Notes under the pieces: generated by a model
Told to the model about the DNA's origin: nothing
The model's database searches: none
Seen by the model: the letters and a program-made list of their open reading frames with translations, nothing else
Shown: positions 3 to 9,686 of the stretch, in pieces
How positions within the stretch are numbered: the first letter of the stretch is position 1
Layout of the letters: every line of letters begins with the position of its first letter
Assembly: GCA_041538025.1 (NCBI GenBank)
Contig: JBGOEV010000001.1
Coordinates: 14,205-78,204, forward strand
Direction: 5' to 3'
Length of the DNA stretch: 64,000 nucleotides
Source of the DNA: Candidatus Thermosaccharophagus gerlachensis
GTDB lineage: Bacteria; Armatimonadota; Fervidibacteria; Fervidibacterales; Thermosaccharophagaceae
Translations under genes and position numbers: made by a program

Positions 3-890
3 ATGCCTTCAGGGGAGAAGTTAAAGGAGCCGGGTTATCAAGGGCGTGATGATCCGTTTAGCCCTGTGTATCAGCCGAGGCGAGTGGCGCTCGAACGCTC
101 AAGTAGGGAGCCGATAACGCTTCCACCTCTATCGCCACCTGAAGTGGAAGCACCAAAGAAAGTCCAATGGGGCAATGTTGGAGTGCCGATGTTAAACGTT
201 GATGTGACACCAACAGGTGTTGAATACTGGACTGTTGAAGGCAGGAAGCATCTGCGTGGCAAACGCCCTGAGAAGGAAGAGCGTGCTCACGAACCATTGG
301 AAGCACCTTACCGTATGGCAGGCATATTGATTGATAGTAAGCGTGTTCATGCAATCCTTGAGGCAAACGAGAAGGATCATGGTGTTGTGCGTGCTGGCGA
401 TAGCTTACAGTTGAGCGTGTTGCCTGCAGCTGGTTTAGGAAAAAGCGAAGTAAGGGTTGTGCGAATTGAGCGTGACAAGATGTTGGTTGAGGATGTAGAT
501 GGGCAATTGAAGTATGTAAGGATGCGCCCAGCTGGCGTGAGGGCAATGCCAAGTGGTGTCGCTGGGGCACCAACAGGTGGAGAGATGCCACCAGGCATGT
601 GGGGTGCTCCCGGTGTGATGCCACAACAACCTTGGATGCCACAGCAACCTTGGATGCCACAGCCTGAAGCTGGATGGATACCACAACAACCGCCGGGCGC
701 ACCGATGTGGGGTGCACCAGGTGAATTTCCGCAACCAGAACCTGGATGGATACCACCACAGCAACCCGGCATGCCAATGTGGATGCAACAGCTGGGCGCA
801 CCACAACCGGGTGTTGCACCCGGAGCACGCCCAACTCAACCAGGTGGCAGACGACCATTTATACGCCGACCACAAAGACAAGAGGAGTGA
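3..890 (+). CDS. 5'-truncated ORF: PilP-like secretin-associated protein with a P/Q/W/M-rich low-complexity C-terminus
   Basis: The frame is open from the window edge. The segment YRMAGILIDSKRVHAILEANEKDHGVVRAGDSL...VRVVRIERDKMLVEDVDGQLKYVRM fits the PilP-type pattern (G-I/L...A-x-L...V-x-x-GD-x-L...V-x-x-I...V-x-L). It lies in the same orientation directly upstream of a secretin gene. Confidence 0.45.
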   Translation: MPSGEKLKEPGYQGRDDPFSPVYQPRRVALERSSREPITLPPLSPPEVEAPKKVQWGNVGVPMLNVDVTPTGVEYWTVEGRKHLRGKRPEKEERAHEPLEAPYRMAGILIDSKRVHAILEANEKDHGVVRAGDSLQLSVLPAAGLGKSEVRVVRIERDKMLVEDVDGQLKYVRMRPAGVRAMPSGVAGAPTGGEMPPGMWGAPGVMPQQPWMPQQPWMPQPEAGWIPQQPPGAPMWGAPGEFPQPEPGWIPPQQPGMPMWMQQLGAPQPGVAPGARPTQPGGRRPFIRRPQRQEE

Positions 891-996
891 TGTTTCTAAT
901 TGCGCTTTTGTATGGAACTGTAAGGTTAGCATGCGCGTCTAATTAAGTGGCTTGTAACGAAGTATTTCGTCCATCACAAATGGAGGTGTATAGAAG

Positions 997-1986
997 ATGC
1001 GAAATGTGAAAGTAGCAATGACGGCATGTGCTTTCCTTGTGTTTGCGATATGTGCATTTGCGAGTGCGCAAGTCAAAGGCTTGGATGAAGTGATTGAGGA
1101 AGCTTTTGACTTGCAAGATGCCACACTTCAAGATGCGATTGATGCTCTCTTCAAGGACACAGGTGTAAACTACATGATTGACCAAAGAGTGCAAGGCATG
1201 GTTACATTGAAAGTGAAGGGTTTGCCTCGTCGTCGTGTGCTTGACTTAATTTGTGAGCGTGTTGGTGCTGAATGGGTTGTTGAAGATGGCGTAGTGCGTA
1301 TCCGTCCAAAACAGCAACCTGTTCCTCAACAGCCTGTCGGACCTGGTTTTCAACCTGGTGGTGCACCAGGTCAAGTTCCTATGCCTGGTCAGCCAGTAGG
1401 ACCATTCCCGCCGGGTGCTGTTGCACCAGTTCGCCCAGAGGAGCAAATGGCTCAAATGGGAGGTGCACAAGTTGGTGGTAGGCGAACTGCACCTACTGTT
1501 GGTGGCATACAAACTGCTGAGGAAGCTGAACCGGAAGAATATGTTTGGGCGCGCATTCCGTTGCGCTTCACCGATGCAATAATGGTTGCAGAAATGCTTG
1601 GTGGGCAGGTTATTACACCAACAGGTGGAACATTGGGTGGCGGTGGAGGACGAGGAGGGTTTGGTGGATTTGGTGGACTTGGAGGTTGGGGAGGAGGGCT
1701 TGGTGGCTTTGGTGGATTTGGTGGGCTTGGTGGACTTGGAGGCTGGGGAGGAGGGCTTGGTGGCTTTGGTGGATTTGGTGGGCTTGGTGGACTTGGTGGT
1801 TGGGGAGGAGGCTTTGGCGGGTTTGGTGGGCTTGGCGGACTTGGTGGTTGGGGAGGCGGATTTGGCGGGCTTGGAGGCTGGGGAGGAGGCTTTGGCGGAT
1901 TTGGCGGGCTTGGTGGACTTGGAGGCTGGGGAGGCTTTGGTGGTCGTGGATGGGGCGGATGGGGTGGACGAGGTTGGAGGCGTTAA
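997..1986 (+). CDS. Secreted truncated secretin-N paralog with a 116-aa G/F/L/W/R-only repeat tail
   Basis: Signal peptide MRNVKVAMTACAFLVFAICAFASAQ. The module FDLQDATLQDAIDALFKDTGVNYMID and the module RIPLRFTDAIMVAEMLGGQV are both mirrored in the downstream secretin. The C-terminus consists of GGFGGLGGWGG-type repeats. A GGAGG RBS lies upstream of the ATG. Confidence 0.85.
   Translation: MRNVKVAMTACAFLVFAICAFASAQVKGLDEVIEEAFDLQDATLQDAIDALFKDTGVNYMIDQRVQGMVTLKVKGLPRRRVLDLICERVGAEWVVEDGVVRIRPKQQPVPQQPVGPGFQPGGAPGQVPMPGQPVGPFPPGAVAPVRPEEQMAQMGGAQVGGRRTAPTVGGIQTAEEAEPEEYVWARIPLRFTDAIMVAEMLGGQVITPTGGTLGGGGGRGGFGGFGGLGGWGGGLGGFGGFGGLGGLGGWGGGLGGFGGFGGLGGLGGWGGGFGGFGGLGGLGGWGGGFGGLGGWGGGFGGFGGLGGLGGWGGFGGRGWGGWGGRGWRR
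1636..1983 (+). repeat. In-frame tandem coding repeat with a 57-nt (19-aa) period, encoding GGWGGGLGGFGGFGGLGGL-type units
   Basis: 1687-1743 and 1744-1800 are identical over the first 52 nt. Further degenerate copies run to 1983. The + strand is very G-rich. Confidence 0.9.
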
Positions 1987-2006
1987 TGAGTTTGCAGAGT
2001 TAGGAG

Positions 2007-3764
2007 GTGATGTGGGTGCCCATAAAACGGCTGGCGGCATTAATTGCGTTTGTATCTTTCATTTGCTTCCCATGTGTTGCGTTGTCTGCGGAGTCTGAGG
2101 AAGACCCACTCATAATGCAGATTGAACTTGAAGATGCCACAGTTGCTGATGCATGTCATATGCTCTTTCAACAAACTGATGCGCAATACTACATCACTTT
2201 GGAAGCCCGAAACAGGCGTGTTGGCAGGCTCTCACTCTACAAGAAGAGGCTGAGCGAGGCATTAGATTACATTGTTAAGCCTGCGGGTCTGTATTGGTGG
2301 CGTGACAAAAGTGGTGTCTTCATCATCTCGGAAAAACCACCAGTGCAAGAACAGCCAATAACTCCTCAGGAGAGTCAGCCACAAAAGCTGCAACCAGAGC
2401 CAACAGTCCAAGAAGAGCCAGTAAAGCCGTCACAAGTAGCACCACCCGTAGTTGCTCAGGAGAGTGAGCCACCGCCAGTCCTGCCCAGACTCGTGACAGG
2501 CGAGGAGCTAAGAGAGCGCATACAGCAAGAACAGCAACGCTACACATTTGGTGTGATAAAGCTAAAGTTCCTTGATGCATTCAATGTTGCCCAGATGCTC
2601 GGTGCAAATGTATCTGTGCTTTCACCGATGGATTCAATTCAGCGTGCTTTAGGCAACCAAATGAATATGGTTCTGCCATATCCACCAGCACCTACACTGC
2701 AAATGCTTGAACGACTCGGGATAACAAACATGCTTGGTCTTCAAAGACAGCCTATAGGCATGCAAGGTGGAGTTGGTGGATTAGGTGGTTTTGGTGGGAA
2801 TGTAACTCGCGGTGATTTGTTGCAGGCAATACCGGGTGCAGCTCCCGGAGCCATCCCGGGTGCAGCCCCAGGAGGGGCACCGGGCGGTGTGTTTGCCATA
2901 CCTGGTATCCAGCAAATACTTGTTGTAAGCACTGTTAATGCGCTCATCGTCTATGGCACACCTGAGGCTATTGAACAGCTTCGTCAACTCATTGACCTCA
3001 TTGACATACCGCCAGACCAGATTGAAATTGAATCACAGTTTGTTGCACTACAAAGGAACGCACAGCAAGCTCTCGGAATAAACTGGGCAGTTGGCGGAGA
3101 CGAGGTTATGGTTGCTACATCAGGGATGCCAGGTGGAACACAGTTCACAATTGGGTTTGTGCGTGGCAACCTAAGAGCGACTCTTGGTGTTTTGCTCAGC
3201 CGTGGTGAAGGGAAAGTTCTAAGAGCACCAAGAGTTGTTACAACGAACAACCAGCCAGCACAAATAATGTTCACCACAGTCCAGCCAGTCTTTATGGATA
3301 CGCTTGTCCTTGATCAGTTTGGTAACCCGATTAGAGTTACTCTCCCTGTGCCTTTAGTCATACCTGTTGGCTTCGTTGTGCTTCCGAGAGTAAATGCTGA
3401 TATGAGCGTCTCAATCTTCATTACACCAATCATTTCCGAAGTTACAGGCTATGTAACAAACCCAATTGGTGGCTCAGTGCCAATCTTTACAAGTGCTTCA
3501 ACGACAGCATATCTTACAGTTAGGGATGGAGAGAGCTTCGCTATCGGTGGCTTGACGCGTGGCAGCACAAGCACAGCCATAACGGAAGTGCCATTACTCG
3601 CTCGCTTGCCTATCATAGGCGACCTCTTTAAGGGCACGCAAAAACAGCGCTCGGAAGAGGAAATGATAATTTTCGTCACACCACATGTGATAAGGCTGTG
3701 GCCAGAGTATTCTGAAGAAGCGCTCGGTCTGCGTGTCAGGGGTGGTGCAGCGGGTGGTCCGTAA
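2007..3764 (+). CDS. Secretin (PilQ/GspD family outer-membrane channel)
   Basis: It has a signal peptide. The C-terminal secretin signature is ...APRVVTTNNQPAQI...VRDGESFAIGGL...VPLLARLPIIGDLFKG...EEMIIFVTPHVI. The N-terminal module is IELEDATVADACHMLFQQTDAQYYI. The start is uncertain: GTG 2007, ATG 2010 or GTG 2016, with AGGAGG at 2002-2007. Confidence 0.9.
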   Translation: MMWVPIKRLAALIAFVSFICFPCVALSAESEEDPLIMQIELEDATVADACHMLFQQTDAQYYITLEARNRRVGRLSLYKKRLSEALDYIVKPAGLYWWRDKSGVFIISEKPPVQEQPITPQESQPQKLQPEPTVQEEPVKPSQVAPPVVAQESEPPPVLPRLVTGEELRERIQQEQQRYTFGVIKLKFLDAFNVAQMLGANVSVLSPMDSIQRALGNQMNMVLPYPPAPTLQMLERLGITNMLGLQRQPIGMQGGVGGLGGFGGNVTRGDLLQAIPGAAPGAIPGAAPGGAPGGVFAIPGIQQILVVSTVNALIVYGTPEAIEQLRQLIDLIDIPPDQIEIESQFVALQRNAQQALGINWAVGGDEVMVATSGMPGGTQFTIGFVRGNLRATLGVLLSRGEGKVLRAPRVVTTNNQPAQIMFTTVQPVFMDTLVLDQFGNPIRVTLPVPLVIPVGFVVLPRVNADMSVSIFITPIISEVTGYVTNPIGGSVPIFTSASTTAYLTVRDGESFAIGGLTRGSTSTAITEVPLLARLPIIGDLFKGTQKQRSEEEMIIFVTPHVIRLWPEYSEEALGLRVRGGAAGGP

Positions 3765-3858: not shown

Positions 3859-5079
3859 ATGCCCTTTCGTTTCTTTACGGCTGGGGAGTCACATGGCAAG
3901 TGCCTCATAGCTGTCGTTGATGGCATCCCATCAGGGCTTAGGATATCATGTGAGGACATTAATCGTGAGTTACGCCGACGCCAAGTTGGTTATGGACGCA
4001 GCGAACGAATGAGAATTGAAAGTGATGAAGTTGAGTTGCTTTCCGGGGTCCGCCATGGCAAGACGCTTGGAAGCCCAATAGCAATGCGCATAGTTAACAA
4101 GGACTACGAAAACTGGAAGCTCGTCATGCAACCAGAACCACTTGAAGAACAATTTGACGATGCAACTTTAAGGCGCTTTTTTGTTCCTCGTCCTGGGCAT
4201 GCTGACCTTGCTGGTGCTATCAAATATGCTCACTTGGATGACTTGCGTAATGTGCTTGAGCGGGCGAGCGCAAGGGAAACCGCTGCAAGAGTTGCTGTTG
4301 GAGCAGTTGCAAAGAGGTTGTGCGAGGAAGTTAACATAAGGATATTCAGCCACGTTGTCTCCATTGGGGATGTGAGCGCAAAGGCATATGAAGAGTTGAC
4401 GAACGAAGAAGTCCAAAGGCTCGCTGAATGTTCACAGCTGCGGTGCGCCGATAAGGATGCCGAAGCACGCATGATGGCTCTCATTGATGAGGCTATGAGG
4501 AAAGGCGATAGCGTTGGAGGCGTCTTTGAAGTCGTAGCTGTTGGAGTCCCAATAGGACTTGGAAGCTATTCGCAATGGGATAAGAGGCTTGATGCAAGGC
4601 TGGCATACGCATTCATGAGCATACACGGTGTTAAAGGCGTTGAGGTGGGACTTGGCTTTGAAGCAGCAAGGAAGTTTGGCTCACAGGTGCATGATGAGTT
4701 CCTTGAGCCAACTATTGACAGTGATGGCAATGTGATCTTCCCACGCAGAACAAACAACGCAGGTGGCATTGAGGGCGGGATCAGCAATGGCATGCCCATA
4801 GTGGTGCGCGCTGCTATGAAACCTATTTCAACTCTGAGGAAGCCGTTGCGCTCCTTTGATCTAAACACGCTAAAGCCAGCAGAAGCACATTTTGAGCGAG
4901 CCGATGTTTGTGCTGTTCCAGCTGCAGCAGTTGTAGCTGAAGCTATGATGGCCATAGTGATTGCTGATGCATTGCTTGAGAAGTTTGGCGGAGATAGCAT
5001 TGATGAGCTGAAGCGGAATCTTAAAGCTTATCAAGATTGGCTTTGCTCCGAGTTCAAAAGGCGAGGCACAATAAGTTAG
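3859..5079 (+). CDS. aroC: Chorismate synthase
   Basis: [27 protein letters not shown]..., [13 protein letters not shown] and the [10 protein letters not shown] motifs are classic AroC features. Confidence 0.95.
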
Positions 5080-5114
5080 GAAGGGGAATCAAAAGGTTAA
5101 GGAGGGTGAGGGAG

Positions 5115-8100
5115 ATGAAAGTGAGGTTGGTGGCTGTTTCTTTTGTGCTGAGCTGTTTAGTGGGATATGTTGCCTTAGCAGCGCCACAGGCAAAAGCAGT
5201 CCTGTTTTCGCTCCCACAAGTTGGCGCTAAAGCCATTTGGGAGGCAGAGCAAGCAGTTAAAGTCACGCCTAAAGATTGGGAAGTCAGAAAAGAGGCGAGG
5301 GCAAGCGGTGGTGCGTATGTTCGTCCGTTGCGCTTTGGGGAAGACGTCATGCTTGAATTCCCTGTAAGCGTCCCTAATGAGACATCGATCATGGTTTATC
5401 CACTTTGGTGGAAGCATGGCGAACGGTTGCCTGCCAGACGCTTCCCATTCCCGCTTGAGGCGAGACCTGGTCCAGATGTGGTAGTGGCAGCGGAGAAGAA
5501 TTTGGTGCTTTTCACAGCACCAGCGAGTGGGCGAATTGGCATTTTTGACACCCTCGCTAAACGCTCAATTGGAGCGATTAATGTTGGCGGTTACATCTCT
5601 GATCTTGTAAGTGATTTGAAGTCGGGCAAATTCTATGCTTCAGATGCGCTTAATGATAGGGTGGTCATTGGTAGCTTGCGCGAATTAAGGGTTGTTGGGG
5701 AGATAAAAACTCCGCAGGCACCATGGGCGTTGGATTTTTCCGATGGCATCCTCTACTGCGTTGCGAGGGAAGGCAGGAGCATCATCGCAGTTGACTCCAG
5801 AAACGACAGAGTTGTGGCTGAGAGGAAATTGGATTGGTCACCAATGGGTGTTGATGCAAGTAGAAAGGAGGAAGTGTTTGTCTGGTTCAAGTCATTTGCA
5901 ATTAACCTTGCAAACATGTCACAAGTTGAGCCCCATTTTGATGTGGACTTACTATCCAGACGAGAATTCATTGAGGTTGGAAGACCAGGAACAGTTGGCG
6001 CAAGGCGCTATTCAAGGAAGCCGGGGGTAATCATCATTGAAGCGTGGACAGACAAGGGCTATGAGCGAAAGGAGATTGATGTTAAGCAGGTGACAGGCGC
6101 TCAAAGCATCGTTAAAGAAGTTACACCACCACTTGTGAATACATCTGGTCCCGATGTCATGTGCTTGGTTGGCAATAGACTCTTCTTCACATCACCTGTG
6201 ACTGGTAAAGTTGGAGTTGTGGACGTAACGAAAGGTATATTGGAAGGAGCTGTTGACATCGGTGGTTATGTTTCCGACATCCTTGCGGATGCGCCGAGGA
6301 ACAGGGTCTTCGTAGCCGATGCAACTAATAACAGGGTCGTTGCGATAGACGCAAAGGATTTGAAAGTTGTCACCTCACTCAATGTTGATAGGATGCCGAT
6401 TATGCTTGAGGCTTTCATACCGCCGGGGTTCCTGCGCGGTTGTCCATTACTGTTATTCGTGGCATGTCATGAGGGTGAATCGGTGGTAACGGTTGACTTA
6501 CCCTCACTTGGAATTCAATCCGTCATTAAAACGCCATTCAAGCCATATCACCTGAGGGTAGTTAATCCACCTGATCCAGGTTGGTGGCCACTAATACCGG
6601 TTGATAGGATACCATTGGTGGCGCTCCGTGCAAGCCTTTTTATCACACCAGCGCCAATCGCACTTAGCAAAGATGGGCTGAAATATCTACGCACATTAGT
6701 GCCAGCACCTTGGTATAGGCGTAGTAGGGTGAGCTTGACTCAGGAAGTGGTTAAAGATGTTGAGAGGGTTATCATGGTTGAAAATAATCACACGGTGCGC
6801 ATTTCCCTGCGGGATGCGCAAGGTAGATGGCTCAGCAATGAATGGTTTGATGTGAGTGACATCACAGATGTTCAGCTTATGCCAGATGATTTGCCAGTGA
6901 CTGCGCGGGATAAGCCTGGCACAATCACGATAGCACTTGATGATGGTAGCGAGTTTAATTGGCAAAGGGGTATATGGCAGACACCAACGCAGGGCATATT
7001 CCTCGTCAACGATACAGACGAGTTCTGGGCATGGAACGCACCCAAGTTTAGGCTCTCACCCGGAAGGCATGTCATAAGGGTTAGAGCATACAGCAAATAT
7101 GCATATATTGATGGCTTGCAAGTCAGAAGGACACTCCATGGTATAGTGCGGATGAATGTTTATGGTCATAGTGAACTCCCTATTGAGCAACGCCGTTATC
7201 AATCCGTCTTTTACGCCGATGAACCAGTTGAGTTGCACATTGAATTGACTAACCTGACGAGGCGCACGCAAAGGCTCAATTTGAATTTCACGATATCTGA
7301 CTACATGGATAGAGAAGTTGTTTCGGGTAATCGTTTCGTTGAGCTTGAGCCGAATGGGAAGAAAGTTGAAGTGATACGCCCTGCGCTGAAGCAGACGGGG
7401 ATATTCTCACTCTTTGTGCGTGTCAGCTCAAGCGATGGGGATTTGTTTGAAAGGCATTATTTTATGCGTCTTCCGCAGTTAACTCGCCCAAGGATGCTAC
7501 TACGGAAAGAACATATCCCAGAGGTTGAAAAACGGATGCAAGGTTACGCGAGGTTGTTTGAGCGCTATTTCCAATGGCTGAGAAGACAATGCGATAGGGA
7601 GGGCTTCCTACCAGCTGGTGTAACGAAAGCCACCTTTGTCCCGAAGTTAGTGGACGGGAAGGGCGGATGGCGTAGGTATGATCTTGGTTGGCGAATGGTT
7701 GCAACTGGCTTTGCTACCTTGTTTGCGCGAGAACCCGAGTTGCGTTCGTTCTTCATGGAGCGAGTTTCTGAGTTGCTTAAGGATGGGCAAGCTGACACAT
7801 ATTGCACATTCCACCATCATGGTCCCTTCTTCCCCGGAGCAGTTGCAATTCTTTTTGACTTTGCTGTCGCATCGATGGGTGATACGCCAGAAGTGCAACG
7901 CATACGTGAATTCTTTAGGGGCTATATAGGCAACATGGATGTTTTCCCTTGGACACTCGCTGCGCTTGATGAACCAATCTCCATCCGTGAGAGAGCTATC
8001 TTGTGGCACATAATGAGTTGGTTGGTCAATGTTGAAAGATACTTTAGCACACATGCTGGCACTCGTGGTGGCACAAGGTGGCTCAACCCAAGGACTGGCT

Positions 8101-9686
8101 GCCATTGCCCATATGCAGCTTTTGCATATCCTTTCCTTTACCTGCGCCACTTCCTTGATGAACCGCAGTTTCATGAGCGAATAATAGTGAAAGGATTAAT
8201 CACATATTGCGAACTCATCCATCCGAGGATGGATAACCGTAAGATGTTAGGTCCTGTGAACCCGTTAGGTGAACCGATACGCCAGATAGACAATTCCATC
8301 TCAAGGCATCCTCTTGGGGCTTTCAAGTATGATTGGAGTAAACTGATTGAGAGGCTCATGGCAGAAGATACAACCGATGAAGAAGTTGACAAGCTACTCT
8401 ACTTCGCTGAAGAGGCAGCGAGCAATCGTCCGATGGCTTTCGTTGTGCCAATTCAATTGGCTCTCGGTTGGTATGATCCTAAGACACCTGCAGTGAAGTT
8501 TGAGGAACTCCCACCAACAGTTCTTTTTGATGGTGAGGGTGAAGTTGTCATGCGTTCAGATTGGTCAAAAGACCTGACTGAGGTTTGGTTTGCGTGCGGT
8601 GTCAGAGACCATGTCTATCGCCATCAACCAACGCACCTGCAGATAGCTAAAGCAGGGGAGTTCCTCTTAGGGACACTCTCAAGCTATGGTGACGACGGCA
8701 ATCCAAATCCGGGCAAGTCGTGGGGGAATGTCGTTGTCATTGAACCGTCAGATTGGCTTGAGAGGTGGGGAAATAATATCTCGCATCCGAGGGCTGAAGA
8801 GTTCCCGATAATAATGCGCTTTTCTGATGCCACATTCCGCTATATCGCAAGAGATAGGATTTTAGTTGGCTACGCGCCAGCTGAAGGTGGATATGGTGGT
8901 GGGCTTGACTTTCACGGTCATACTGAATCCGTCTACCTGCGTGAGGGTGAGATTTTGGCTTATGAGACACACCCGGAATTTGATTATGTTTGTGGTGACG
9001 CAACTAACTCATGGCTCCCAAGTCAAGCTGAAGAAGTTTATAGGCAGGTTGTTTTCATCCGCCCAAATGTGGTCATAGTCTACGACCGCGTGAAGCTTGG
9101 GGATGAGGCAAAGAGAGCTTTCTGGGTCGCTGCAGTTGGTGAGAAAGTTGAACTGCAAGAAGGCTTATTCAAAGTCCGTCAAGGTAATTCAGCAATGAAC
9201 GCTTACGTGCTCATGCCAACTAAATCACAGTTTCAAGTTTATGACCTTTCACAGCCAAGCAAATATACTACACCACCACCATTCACAATCAATTGGCGCT
9301 TGGCTGACAAAGTGACAGCTCATCAGAAAGTGATTGAGATTCATCCCGAAGGCGTAGGCAAGCAAGTTGAGTTCCTCATACTGATGAGCGTCGGTGTCGG
9401 CAGTGCTGAAGAAATATCACCGAAGCTTTCCGTCAGCTCAGCGGAGTGTGCCGTTGAATTCGCCTACAATGGCAAGAAGTATTGCGTGAGCTTCGCAAGG
9501 GACGGAGTCCCAGCAGGCAAGCTAACAATAACCAATGGGAAGCAAGTTACCAAGCACAGGTTTGTTCAGTCAATTGATGATAGTTATCGCCACTGGAGGA
9601 CCGATAAGAGGTTTAAGATGTGGATGACTGACAAGCGGTTTGAATTCATAATCCCCGAGAGGGATAGGAAAGCATTCGCTAAGTAA
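5115..9686 (+). CDS. Large secreted multidomain protein: CBM-like region, two YVTN-type beta-propeller repeat blocks and a C-terminal heparinase II/III-like lyase domain
   Basis: A GGAGGG RBS precedes the ATG at 5115, and the signal peptide is MKVRLVAVSFVLSCLVGYVALAAPQAKA. There is an internal duplication (GRIGIFD...GAINVGGYISDLVSD...FYASDALNDRVVIG versus GKVGVVD...GAVDIGGYVSDILAD...VFVADATNNRVVAID). The ASGGAYV motif is CBM-like. The C-terminal YRHQPTHLQIAKAGEFLLGTLSSYGDDGNPNP fits the heparinase II/III pattern H-x-H-x-D...G...D-x-G. Confidence 0.75.
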   Translation: MKVRLVAVSFVLSCLVGYVALAAPQAKAVLFSLPQVGAKAIWEAEQAVKVTPKDWEVRKEARASGGAYVRPLRFGEDVMLEFPVSVPNETSIMVYPLWWKHGERLPARRFPFPLEARPGPDVVVAAEKNLVLFTAPASGRIGIFDTLAKRSIGAINVGGYISDLVSDLKSGKFYASDALNDRVVIGSLRELRVVGEIKTPQAPWALDFSDGILYCVAREGRSIIAVDSRNDRVVAERKLDWSPMGVDASRKEEVFVWFKSFAINLANMSQVEPHFDVDLLSRREFIEVGRPGTVGARRYSRKPGVIIIEAWTDKGYERKEIDVKQVTGAQSIVKEVTPPLVNTSGPDVMCLVGNRLFFTSPVTGKVGVVDVTKGILEGAVDIGGYVSDILADAPRNRVFVADATNNRVVAIDAKDLKVVTSLNVDRMPIMLEAFIPPGFLRGCPLLLFVACHEGESVVTVDLPSLGIQSVIKTPFKPYHLRVVNPPDPGWWPLIPVDRIPLVALRASLFITPAPIALSKDGLKYLRTLVPAPWYRRSRVSLTQEVVKDVERVIMVENNHTVRISLRDAQGRWLSNEWFDVSDITDVQLMPDDLPVTARDKPGTITIALDDGSEFNWQRGIWQTPTQGIFLVNDTDEFWAWNAPKFRLSPGRHVIRVRAYSKYAYIDGLQVRRTLHGIVRMNVYGHSELPIEQRRYQSVFYADEPVELHIELTNLTRRTQRLNLNFTISDYMDREVVSGNRFVELEPNGKKVEVIRPALKQTGIFSLFVRVSSSDGDLFERHYFMRLPQLTRPRMLLRKEHIPEVEKRMQGYARLFERYFQWLRRQCDREGFLPAGVTKATFVPKLVDGKGGWRRYDLGWRMVATGFATLFAREPELRSFFMERVSELLKDGQADTYCTFHHHGPFFPGAVAILFDFAVASMGDTPEVQRIREFFRGYIGNMDVFPWTLAALDEPISIRERAILWHIMSWLVNVERYFSTHAGTRGGTRWLNPRTGCHCPYAAFAYPFLYLRHFLDEPQFHERIIVKGLITYCELIHPRMDNRKMLGPVNPLGEPIRQIDNSISRHPLGAFKYDWSKLIERLMAEDTTDEEVDKLLYFAEEAASNRPMAFVVPIQLALGWYDPKTPAVKFEELPPTVLFDGEGEVVMRSDWSKDLTEVWFACGVRDHVYRHQPTHLQIAKAGEFLLGTLSSYGDDGNPNPGKSWGNVVVIEPSDWLERWGNNISHPRAEEFPIIMRFSDATFRYIARDRILVGYAPAEGGYGGGLDFHGHTESVYLREGEILAYETHPEFDYVCGDATNSWLPSQAEEVYRQVVFIRPNVVIVYDRVKLGDEAKRAFWVAAVGEKVELQEGLFKVRQGNSAMNAYVLMPTKSQFQVYDLSQPSKYTTPPPFTINWRLADKVTAHQKVIEIHPEGVGKQVEFLILMSVGVGSAEEISPKLSVSSAECAVEFAYNGKKYCVSFARDGVPAGKLTITNGKQVTKHRFVQSIDDSYRHWRTDKRFKMWMTDKRFEFIIPERDRKAFAK

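Follow-up and report, generated by a model that had tools for sequence, protein, structure and literature searches.

The window analysed here is a stretch of 64,000 nucleotides of Candidatus Thermosaccharophagus gerlachensis DNA (contig JBGOEV010000001.1, positions 14,205 to 78,204). Immediately upstream of a PilQ-type secretin gene it carries gene X, an open reading frame (ORF) that encodes 329 amino acids (997..1986, + strand, ATG at 997). X is a truncated paralogue of the PilQ N-terminus, since its N0 domain, its linker and its beta-alpha element all align to the neighbouring PilQ, and it ends in a long tail of glycine and aromatic residues. The best explanation for gene X and its homologues is that they form a family specific to the Armatimonadota and encode a periplasmic accessory subunit of the type IVa pilus machine. 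As to the role of the tail, our best reading, to which we give a probability of about 0.4, is that the tails of several X copies would be tethered at the vestibule of PilQ and cohere there into a mesh or gasket.

We class X as a secretin accessory protein with a low-complexity domain previously undescribed for proteins of that kind. No description of the family was found in the literature on glycine-rich sequences in connection with PilQ, secretins or Armatimonadetes, or on FG repeats in the periplasm, and database labels of its members read 'hypothetical' or 'STN domain-containing protein'. A protein identical to X is on record from a metagenome-assembled genome of Ca. Fervidibacterota (locus L001). 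The nearest species representative is Ca. Thermosaccharophagus yellowstonensis, of the phylum Armatimonadota.

Structure of X and its relation to PilQ

Residues 11-205 of X align by BLASTP with residues 16-202 of PilQ at 31% identity, with an expectation value (E) of 3e-12, and the alignment covers the N0 domain, the Pro-rich linker and the beta-alpha element. PilQ itself (2007..3764, + strand; the gene caller starts it at 2016, and AGGAGG lies at 2000-2005) matches Pfam Secretin (E 1.3e-31) and Secretin_N (2.3e-7) as well as TIGR02517 (1e-35) and TIGR02515 (1e-34). An earlier reading of these letters (hereafter the sequence-only reading) had described X as a secretin-associated STN protein, and both parts of that description hold. 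Scans against Pfam and NCBIfam give this PilQ an N0 and one N domain, with no matches to AMIN or to additional N domains.

The N0/STN domain of X occupies residues 33-105 (1093..1311, + strand). AlphaFold2 models it with a predicted local distance difference test score (pLDDT) above 90, and the best match of the model in the PDB by Foldseek is the N0 domain of Neisseria meningitidis PilQ (4ar0; E 2.7e-5, root-mean-square deviation 1.8 Å over 72 columns), followed by further matches to the N0 domains of XcpQ, GspD, EscC and InvG. Residues 37-107 match positions 6-76 of TIGR02515 (PilQ) with an E of 1e-6. X falls below the Pfam gathering cutoffs of PF21305 (17.8 vs 27 bits) and PF07660 (14.9 vs 28.4 bits), but many of its homologues do have a precomputed PF07660 match. 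On its predicted fold and its paralogy to PilQ, rather than on a Pfam gathering score, X is a divergent member of the N0/STN superfamily.

The domain is preceded by what reads as a Sec signal peptide (MRNVKVAMTACAFLVFAICAFASA|Q; 997..1068, + strand), ending ASA|Q. Homologues in the alignment (A1) share a hydrophobic N-terminus with A-x-A or AQ after it. No lipobox Cys follows the signal peptide, and the Cys residues within it are not conserved in the same alignment. X was therefore rejected as a lipoprotein pilotin. The sequence of the C-terminus, GGRGWRR, contains neither a hydrophobic helix nor a C-terminal transmembrane sorting motif. A C-terminal sorting signal was rejected for want of such a helix, as was insertion of the tail into the outer membrane as beta-strands, given its 67% Gly.

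Downstream of N0 comes a linker rich in Pro, Gly and Gln (residues 106-180; 1312..1536, + strand; P16 G14 Q11 of 75) with block-mean pLDDT values of 43-63; PilQ has a Pro-rich linker at the same position. There follows a beta-alpha element (EYVWARIPLRFTDAIMVAEMLGGQV; residues 181-205, 1537..1611, + strand), which aligns to PilQ residues 177-202 and in which the AlphaFold2 model places a helix at residues 194-200. The strand-helix element reads EYVWARIPLRFTDAIMVAEMLGG in X and RYTFGVIKLKFLDAFNVAQMLGA in PilQ. Here the likeness ends. The beta-alpha-beta-beta-alpha unit of Secretin_N (PF03958) is incomplete in X, which has the first strand and helix only, and the beta-beta-alpha half (PilQ 301-336) has no counterpart. 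Nor does any part of X match the Secretin beta-barrel domain (PF00263), the protein ending instead in its Gly tail. X is thus not a secretin.

The place at which X departs from PilQ is informative. In the window PilQ, the first half of the only Secretin_N domain, which is the counterpart of 1537-1611 in X, lies at 2541..2612, and the second, beta-beta-alpha half at 2907..3014 (both + strand; positions 34-69 of PF03958 correspond to PilQ residues 303-338). Between the first helix and the second strand the domain is split by about 100 residues of low complexity. This insert (2751..2888, + strand) comprises GGVGGLGGFGG (2751-2813) and (AIPGAAPG)n (2826-2888), with a 9-nt repeat at 2766-2797. In the window lineage the GG-phi-GG part measures 21-24 amino acids (aa), and in seven of eight other loci the PilQ carries a GG-phi-GG insert of 48-55 aa at the same site (e.g. 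GGGLGGGGLGGGLGGGG..., GGVGGFGGVGGLGGLG...). The X tail follows the beta-alpha element exactly where the PilQs of the phylum have these inserts of 20-55 aa. On this alignment, X would stop inside a PilQ-type insert, and the insert would have become the tail.

The beta-alpha elements of X and PilQ resemble each other most within a lineage. Their identity is 0.29 within lineages vs 0.20 across them (permutation p 0.002), in a small sample of seven lineages and with a result that depends on the alignment; for the N0 domain the corresponding difference is weak (p 0.08). Residues common to X and PilQ in single lineages can be seen in L005 (IK[IL]xHADP) and in L003 (RTEK[IM]xLQ[HY]). Recent gene conversion between X and pilQ is not supported in the window and is not the cause of this likeness, because the beta-alpha DNA of the two genes is only 50% identical and the third base is shared in 6 of the 12 identical residues. 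The pattern would be explained if both elements had a common lineage-specific partner, such as the beta-beta-alpha half of the N domain in PilQ.

Translation of 1636..1983 (+ strand) yields the tail, 116 residues with the composition G78 F12 L12 W9 R5. The sequence-only reading had counted 116 residues of these five kinds by hand, and its quotations of the body (GGFGGFGGLGGWGGGLGG...) and of the end (GGRGWGGWGGRGWRR) are both correct; the run extends to 117 residues if L213 is counted. Gly, Phe, Leu, Trp and Arg together account for a fraction of 0.30 of the residues in the long ORFs of the window, so that the chance of a 116-residue run is about 10^-60.6. No other ORF of the 64 kb is rich in Gly. 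Units of (GG-phi)n, each ending in GGW, make up the tail. An extra Gly comes after five of these ends, and the distance between successive non-Gly residues is therefore 3 in 28 of 37 gaps and 4 in five, the latter after Trp. The last residues form a cap rich in Arg and Trp (GGRGWGGWGGRGWRR; 1939..1983, + strand). At the DNA level, Tandem Repeats Finder reports a 57-nt (19-aa) tandem unit in 3.3 copies with 90% matches. Two pairs of repeat units of the same length differ by seven synonymous and no non-synonymous codon changes.

No ordered fold is predicted for the tail. AlphaFold2 with a 30-sequence alignment assigns it a pLDDT of about 42 and no secondary structure, and the tail modelled alone reaches a mean pLDDT of 51 with a predicted template modelling score of 0.13. 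A Foldseek search with the tail model gave 0 matches, as did phmmer of the tail against PDB sequences, and a tail-only HMMER search left, after composition correction, two junk matches with E >4. The tail has the features of an FG-nucleoporin-like domain: it is uncharged and predicted to be disordered, with hydrophobic or aromatic stickers (F+L+W+Y+M about 24% over 116 tails of the family) set in flexible spacers. The two features expected of a polyglycine-II (PGII) sandwich, a conserved triplet register and a confident AlphaFold2 sandwich model, are both absent from it.

The register varies indeed across the family. The spacing between non-Gly residues is 3 in 35% of gaps, 4 in 21% and 5 in 14%; the fraction of spacing 3 ranges from 0 to 0.69 per protein, and some members have Phe every 6-7 residues. 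Since the register is not conserved, selection appears to act on the composition of the tail rather than on a lattice, that is, on Gly spacers, hydrophobic stickers, the lack of charge and the Arg cap. The missing AlphaFold2 fold and the unconserved spacing together favour a disordered sticker-and-spacer domain over a PGII sandwich.

Distribution and genomic context

A homologue search of 5.8 billion proteins returned 130 significant matches, the best 120 of which were listed. These are 186-329 aa long, and all of the named ones come from Armatimonadota (Fervidibacterota, Fimbriimonadales, Chthonomonadales). The sequence-only reading had proposed looking for STN proteins with Gly-aromatic tails in related genomes, and a Gly-rich tail is indeed present in 120/120 of the listed homologues. 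The architecture in the 40 sequences that were read is a signal peptide, N0/STN, a linker, a beta-alpha element ending LLGG and a tail of Gly and hydrophobic residues. By an automated measure 116 homologues have a tail of at least 40 aa; in three of the remaining four the tail is followed by a short non-Gly end, and in the fourth (P0003) it is about 50 aa long. Over the 116 tails the median length is 90 aa (range 42-124) and the composition G 66.9%, F 14.7%, L 5.2%, R 2.7%, W 2.3%, S 2.1% and Y 1.9%, with D+E+K+H below 1%. Ninety percent of the tail Arg lies within the last 30 residues, and among the 120 listed homologues the last residue is Arg in 73 and Phe in 34.

It must be noted that this search selects candidates by shared words, and '120 of 120' overstates the universality of the tail because such a choice favours tail-bearing proteins. 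A second, index-free search was made with a profile of the N-terminal 212 residues only. It gave 27,323 matches from the STN/N0 superfamily, topped by multi-STN repeat proteins that sum their domain scores, and was filtered to the 22 matches that cover the full profile in a single stretch. Of these, 15-16 have an in-frame Gly tail, three are cut at a contig end as the tail begins, and 3-4 read like the repeat in a wrong frame (e.g. RRWWRRRWRRW in P0251). A different C-terminal domain occurs in none of the 22. The C-termini of P0251, P0190, P0232 and P0225 resemble a wrong-frame Gly repeat or an early break, and these sequences may be sequencing or assembly errors or genuine pseudogenes.

Two other groups of STN proteins came up alongside the X family. 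The highest scores with the N-terminal profile belong to proteins with 3-9 tandem STN/N0 domains and up to 1677 aa (P0121, P0126, P0139, P0158, P0176). A second architecture (P0268, equal to L009 8001-9677; P0170, P0235, P0223) combines 2-3 STN domains with a beta-rich domain and closes in a short Gly/Tyr tail that ends in R-x-aromatic (RSW, RTW, QRF, RRW). Upstream of the P0268 gene lie, instead of pil genes, those of an ECF sigma factor and of a 238-aa protein. STN proteins may more widely carry a Gly-rich end that finishes in an Arg/aromatic motif.

Closer to the window, a scan of a genome collection with an alignment of close relatives (A4) matched only two species, both of Ca. Thermosaccharophagus. 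In these two, X is 325 and 332 aa long and its tail (117 and 123 aa) is intact and in frame, ending GWGRGWRR and GGRGWRR; the order of the repeat units differs between the species. Frameshifted or absent tails in close relatives, which had been named beforehand as a sign that the repeat is decaying, were not found, and the architecture shared by the listed Armatimonadota homologues speaks strongly against that view. P0003 (261 aa) and the X protein of L008 (6001-6999, 332 aa) have near-identical N-termini and tails of about 50 and 120 aa, from which it follows that either tail length changes quickly or the repeats collapse in short-read assembly.

The reading frame of X is correct: its first 212 residues show homology to N0 domains of secretins, and the Gly frame is kept by all relatives. 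Alternative-frame ORFs over the tail (1545..2003, 1586..2098, 1246..2040 (minus strand)) exist because the repeat is free of stop codons, and these overlapping ORFs were rejected as genes. X is preceded by a Shine-Dalgarno sequence, GGAGG (982..986, + strand), 10 nt upstream of its ATG. The gap between X and pilQ is about 20-30 nt, depending on the pilQ start, and no promoter-like or terminator-like site was found within it, so co-transcription of the two genes is likely.

At this locus pilM and pilN are followed by genes for 268 and 412 aa, the latter in the pilP position, and then by X, the secretin gene and aroC. X lies between the pilP-position gene and pilQ in nine sampled lineages, namely the window lineage (L001, L007, L008) and eight further ones (L003/L004, L005, L010, L011, L012, L013, L016), with the order pilM-N-O-(P)-X-pilQ-aro. 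It thus holds a conserved position inside the type IVa pilus pilMNOPQ cluster. The pilP-position gene (412 aa in L001), whose 3' part lies at 3..890 (+ strand), matches no Pfam or NCBIfam family. The last ~110 aa of its product in the window (~560-890; PQQPWMPQQPWMPQPEAGWIPQQPPGAPMWGAPGEF...) are a low-complexity C-terminus of P, Q, M, W and G. The PilP-position proteins of other Armatimonadota end in Gly/Pro-rich tails. With the PilP-position protein, X and PilQ each bearing one, three adjacent periplasmic parts of the machine have low-complexity segments.

Beyond pilQ lies aroC (chorismate synthase; 3859..5079 in the window), both in the window lineage and in L012, while most other lineages (L003, L005, L010, L013, L016) have aroK-aroB there; the linkage of pilQ to a shikimate-pathway gene is maintained although the partner gene differs. 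Directly after aroC comes an ORF of 1549 aa (5037..9686, + strand), also called as a gene in L001, for which no Pfam match was found at E <1e-5. It is followed by genes for a Lar_N protein and a heparinase II/III-like protein.

Possible roles of the tail

The mesh or gasket that we tentatively prefer can be traced through the following steps. X would have arisen by partial duplication of the 5' part of pilQ, the copy taking N0, the linker and, from the last N domain, only the initial strand and helix; the duplicate would have ended within the variable loop, rich in glycine, and the C-terminal tail would be an expanded form of that loop. Through its N0 domain X would be docked where the machine has its base, to the N0 ring of PilQ, to the PilP-position protein or to both, and the beta-alpha element would pack with the ring of PilQ N domains. 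The uncharged (G2-6-phi)n tail would stay disordered and act as a cohesive sticker-and-spacer domain. About a dozen copies of X per channel, together with the GG-phi-GG loops of PilQ, could then build up, within the periplasmic vestibule or below it, a mesh or gasket, hydrophobic and compliant, that would limit leakage through the secretin and that the pilus would push through or displace. The Arg/aromatic cap may provide cation-pi cross-links or a terminal contact. A plug or gel that gates the vestibule was among the roles proposed by the sequence-only reading, and this proposal receives circumstantial support from the tail at the site of the secretin N3 loop, from the GG-phi-GG insert that PilQ has there, and from the precedent of SlkA and SlkB (see below). 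In a bolder form, which we consider rather unlikely, the ring of PilQ paralogues and the PilQ loops would hang at least a dozen tails into the vestibule as a cohesive gel resembling the barrier of the nuclear pore, sealing the secretin against solutes and yet passing the pilus and perhaps DNA.

Several observations weigh against the mesh. One Chthonomonadales lineage (P0009, P0017) encodes X away from any pil gene, between uvrB and bioY (L006 6643-7413; L014 and L015 6001-6768). The PilQ of Ca. T. tengchongensis (L008) has no Gly insert while its X retains a tail of 123 aa, and co-assembly of the tails with PilQ loops is therefore not obligatory. The Gly fractions of X tails and PilQ inserts show no significant correlation (Spearman 0.36, p 0.39, n=8). 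Furthermore, low AlphaFold2 confidence is no proof of disorder, and with a hydrophobic residue at every 3-5 positions the tail far exceeds FG nucleoporins in sticker density and could give a solid or elastic material instead of a permeable gel.

The main rival, doubtful as we consider it, is an elastic tether or anchor. The linker and tail would act as an entropic spring, with the N0 end held at the inner-membrane platform and the cap bound to peptidoglycan or to the inner face of the outer membrane, so that X would brace or position a short PilQ over a wide periplasm in place of AMIN domains or stacked N rings. The Trp/Arg anchor of the sequence-only reading belongs here and is still a live rival. 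The single N domain of the window PilQ and its lack of AMIN matches fit this proposal, as do the dimensions of the envelope: the relative Fervidibacter sacchari has a periplasm of 55.5 nm with a peptidoglycan layer of 12.5 nm (PMC11535203), and the wide periplasm of Thermus is spanned by six PilQ rings (PMC5745081). The longest linkers (~75 aa) and tails (117-124 aa) of the sample are found in X proteins of the Fervidibacteria type, Arg and the terminal aromatic residue are concentrated in the conserved cap, and GspB/OutB are accessory proteins able to anchor a secretin to the cell wall, according to the available part of the source (PMC9239104). Yet Leu and Met are common at the phi positions and fit poorly with aromatic stacking on sugars, a plain spacer needs neither one third of hydrophobic residues nor a near-complete exclusion of charge, mesophilic relatives with short linkers retain tails of ~90-100 aa, and family-profile scans (Pfam, NCBIfam) recognised no motif for binding peptidoglycan or lipid. 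It is quite unlikely, in our estimate, that X is instead a transient assembly factor, a pilotin- or scaffold-like protein with a cohesive tail that would hold on to the GG-phi-GG loops of PilQ monomers and so collect these in a local condensate in which rings form more readily. Such a role would be in keeping with the diversity of pilotins, which are unrelated in sequence (PMC13392014). The grammar that the tail has in common with the PilQ insert, the Gly/Pro-rich low-complexity end of the PilP-position protein and the location of X immediately upstream of pilQ in nine lineages also speak for it. Pilotins are usually outer-membrane lipoproteins, however, and X has no lipobox; one PilQ is without the Gly insert; and the full N0 domain with its beta-alpha element suggests stable incorporation rather than a passing function.

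An ordered PGII tail is very unlikely, although the window copy has a good triplet register. In this model the tail would fold as PGII helices that run antiparallel and turn at the GGG behind each Trp, stacked into a flat sandwich with a greasy face of Phe, Leu and Trp that sticks to a membrane or to another sheet, as proposed for the 'sails' of PE_PGRS proteins or seen in the snow-flea antifreeze protein. The spacing of 3 in 28 of the 37 gaps, and the one-residue phase shift after five Trp residues that divides the tail into units of 3-6 triplets, recall the PGII helices of 3-5 triplets with a hydrophobic 'foot' described for PGRS domains (PMC10216338; PMC9436101). AlphaFold2, however, models PGRS sandwiches at a mean pLDDT >90 (PMC10216338) as against 42-51 for the X tail, which finds no structural match, and the spacings of 4-7 in many members (P0014, P0047, P0052, P0071) are incompatible with a shared PGII lattice. 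Scarcely credible, finally, is the view that X is exported through the neighbouring channel as a matrix or adhesin fibre, as the sequence-only reading had also suggested, or that the tail is a functionless, slippage-driven expansion on a dying duplicate. The DNA repeat is recent (57-nt units at 90% identity), tail length varies widely on near-identical N-termini (50 vs 120 aa in P0003 vs L008), and there are a few frameshift-like variants (P0251, P0190, P0232, P0225). Each of these frameshifted forms is nevertheless known from one metagenomic representative only, and repeat DNA of this kind is easily misassembled; the differences between repeat units are all synonymous, and architecture, frame, composition and Arg cap are kept throughout the phylum. 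Export is unlikely because X is a truncated PilQ paralogue with a ring-type periplasmic domain, encoded in a fixed slot inside pilMNOPQ; moreover, the secretins of type IVa pili pass pili, not soluble 30-kDa proteins.

The family bears on two open questions, namely how the outer membrane is kept tight in spite of its secretins and how diderm Terrabacteria with a very wide periplasm build their pilus machines. It is a phylum-wide candidate of simple design, a folded N0 dock with a low-complexity tail, in a field where dedicated secretin plug proteins have been known only since 2026 (PMC13392014). Should the tail prove to be a functional gel or an elastic collar, it would add to the few cases of a sticker-and-spacer domain of low complexity at work in the periplasm of bacteria, and a secretin loop would have been turned into a separate subunit by partial gene duplication. 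Even with a mundane function, the family deserves a name and a profile. For Fervidibacter sacchari, RNA-Seq and proteomics covering 97.4% of genes have been reported.

Comparison with known systems

The closest relatives of X are the N-terminal modules of PilQ, GspD and InvG, with which it shares the N0 fold, being also a sequence paralogue of the adjacent PilQ N-terminus. It differs from these secretins in having no beta-barrel and only half an N domain, and in that the loop has become a free C-terminal tail of 116 aa, one third of it hydrophobic. The N3 variable loop of InvG is linked to the periplasmic constriction of the closed complex and reorders upon passage of the needle (PMC6155069), and Thermus PilQ, with six N rings, has a second periplasmic gate built of long loops (PMC5745081). 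By an argument from homology of position, the start of the X tail would be the topological equivalent of the InvG N3 variable loop.

The functional parallel nearest to our preferred mesh is offered by SlkA and SlkB of Pseudomonas aeruginosa, which, according to the available part of the report (PMC13392014), are periplasmic, form a mobile mass in the PilQ lumen and prevent the influx of antibiotics. Like X on our reading, they are small periplasmic proteins associated with a type IV pilus secretin, and their poorly ordered lumen mass preserves the outer-membrane barrier. The PDB entries of the complex contain no coordinates for them. They are, on the other hand, reported mainly from gamma-proteobacteria and encoded at PA5122-PA5123, outside pilMNOPQ, and the available description, on which this comparison is based, mentions no N0 domain or Gly tail. 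The same text has its authors predict unrelated plug proteins in other bacteria. That X might be a plug as well is an inference from where its tail lies with respect to the N3 variable loop.

DotD, the HR domains of PilP and GspC, GspB/OutB, TsaP and BfpG are, like X on our reading, small proteins of the cell envelope with a part in connecting or bracing secretin or outer-membrane complexes. Structures containing DotD are among the fold matches of X, and one homologue matches the DotD family PF16816. Unlike members of this group, X is not a lipoprotein and has neither a LysM nor an HR domain; conversely, we know of no Gly/aromatic low-complexity tail on any of them.

Resemblances of the tail itself lie further afield. 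With PGII sandwich proteins (PE_PGRS, the snow-flea antifreeze protein, phage gp38) the window tail shares short stretches of GGX triplets with hydrophobic X. The GGA/GGN repeats of PE_PGRS are, however, the ones that AlphaFold2 folds into sandwiches with confidence (PMC10216338), whereas the X tail yields no confident PGII fold, the X family does not keep the register, and X has no PE domain and no Ala/Asn-rich GGA/GGN motifs. The eukaryotic glycine-rich proteins, such as plant glycine-rich proteins, loricrin loops, tick cement glycine-rich protein and the GGX of spider silk, have a similar composition and GGX grammar. They are of unrelated descent and make bulk extracellular or cytoskeletal materials, as opposed to a tail tethered to a membrane machine. 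Tick cement protein phase-separates and then ages to a solid, as stated in the available part of its description (PMC11794139).

The likeness to FG and glycine-loop material noticed by the sequence-only reading thus holds, in composition only. FG nucleoporins of the GLFG type have cohesive domains that are uncharged and of low complexity, with Phe and Leu stickers on flexible spacers and a folded domain that anchors them around a channel, and in each of these respects X would be comparable. There is no homology between the two; the spacers of X are almost pure Gly, with stickers every 3-5 residues, its tails also use Trp and Tyr, and their compartment is the bacterial periplasm. A phase-separating low-complexity barrier in that compartment, if it exists, would have evolved independently of the FG nucleoporins.

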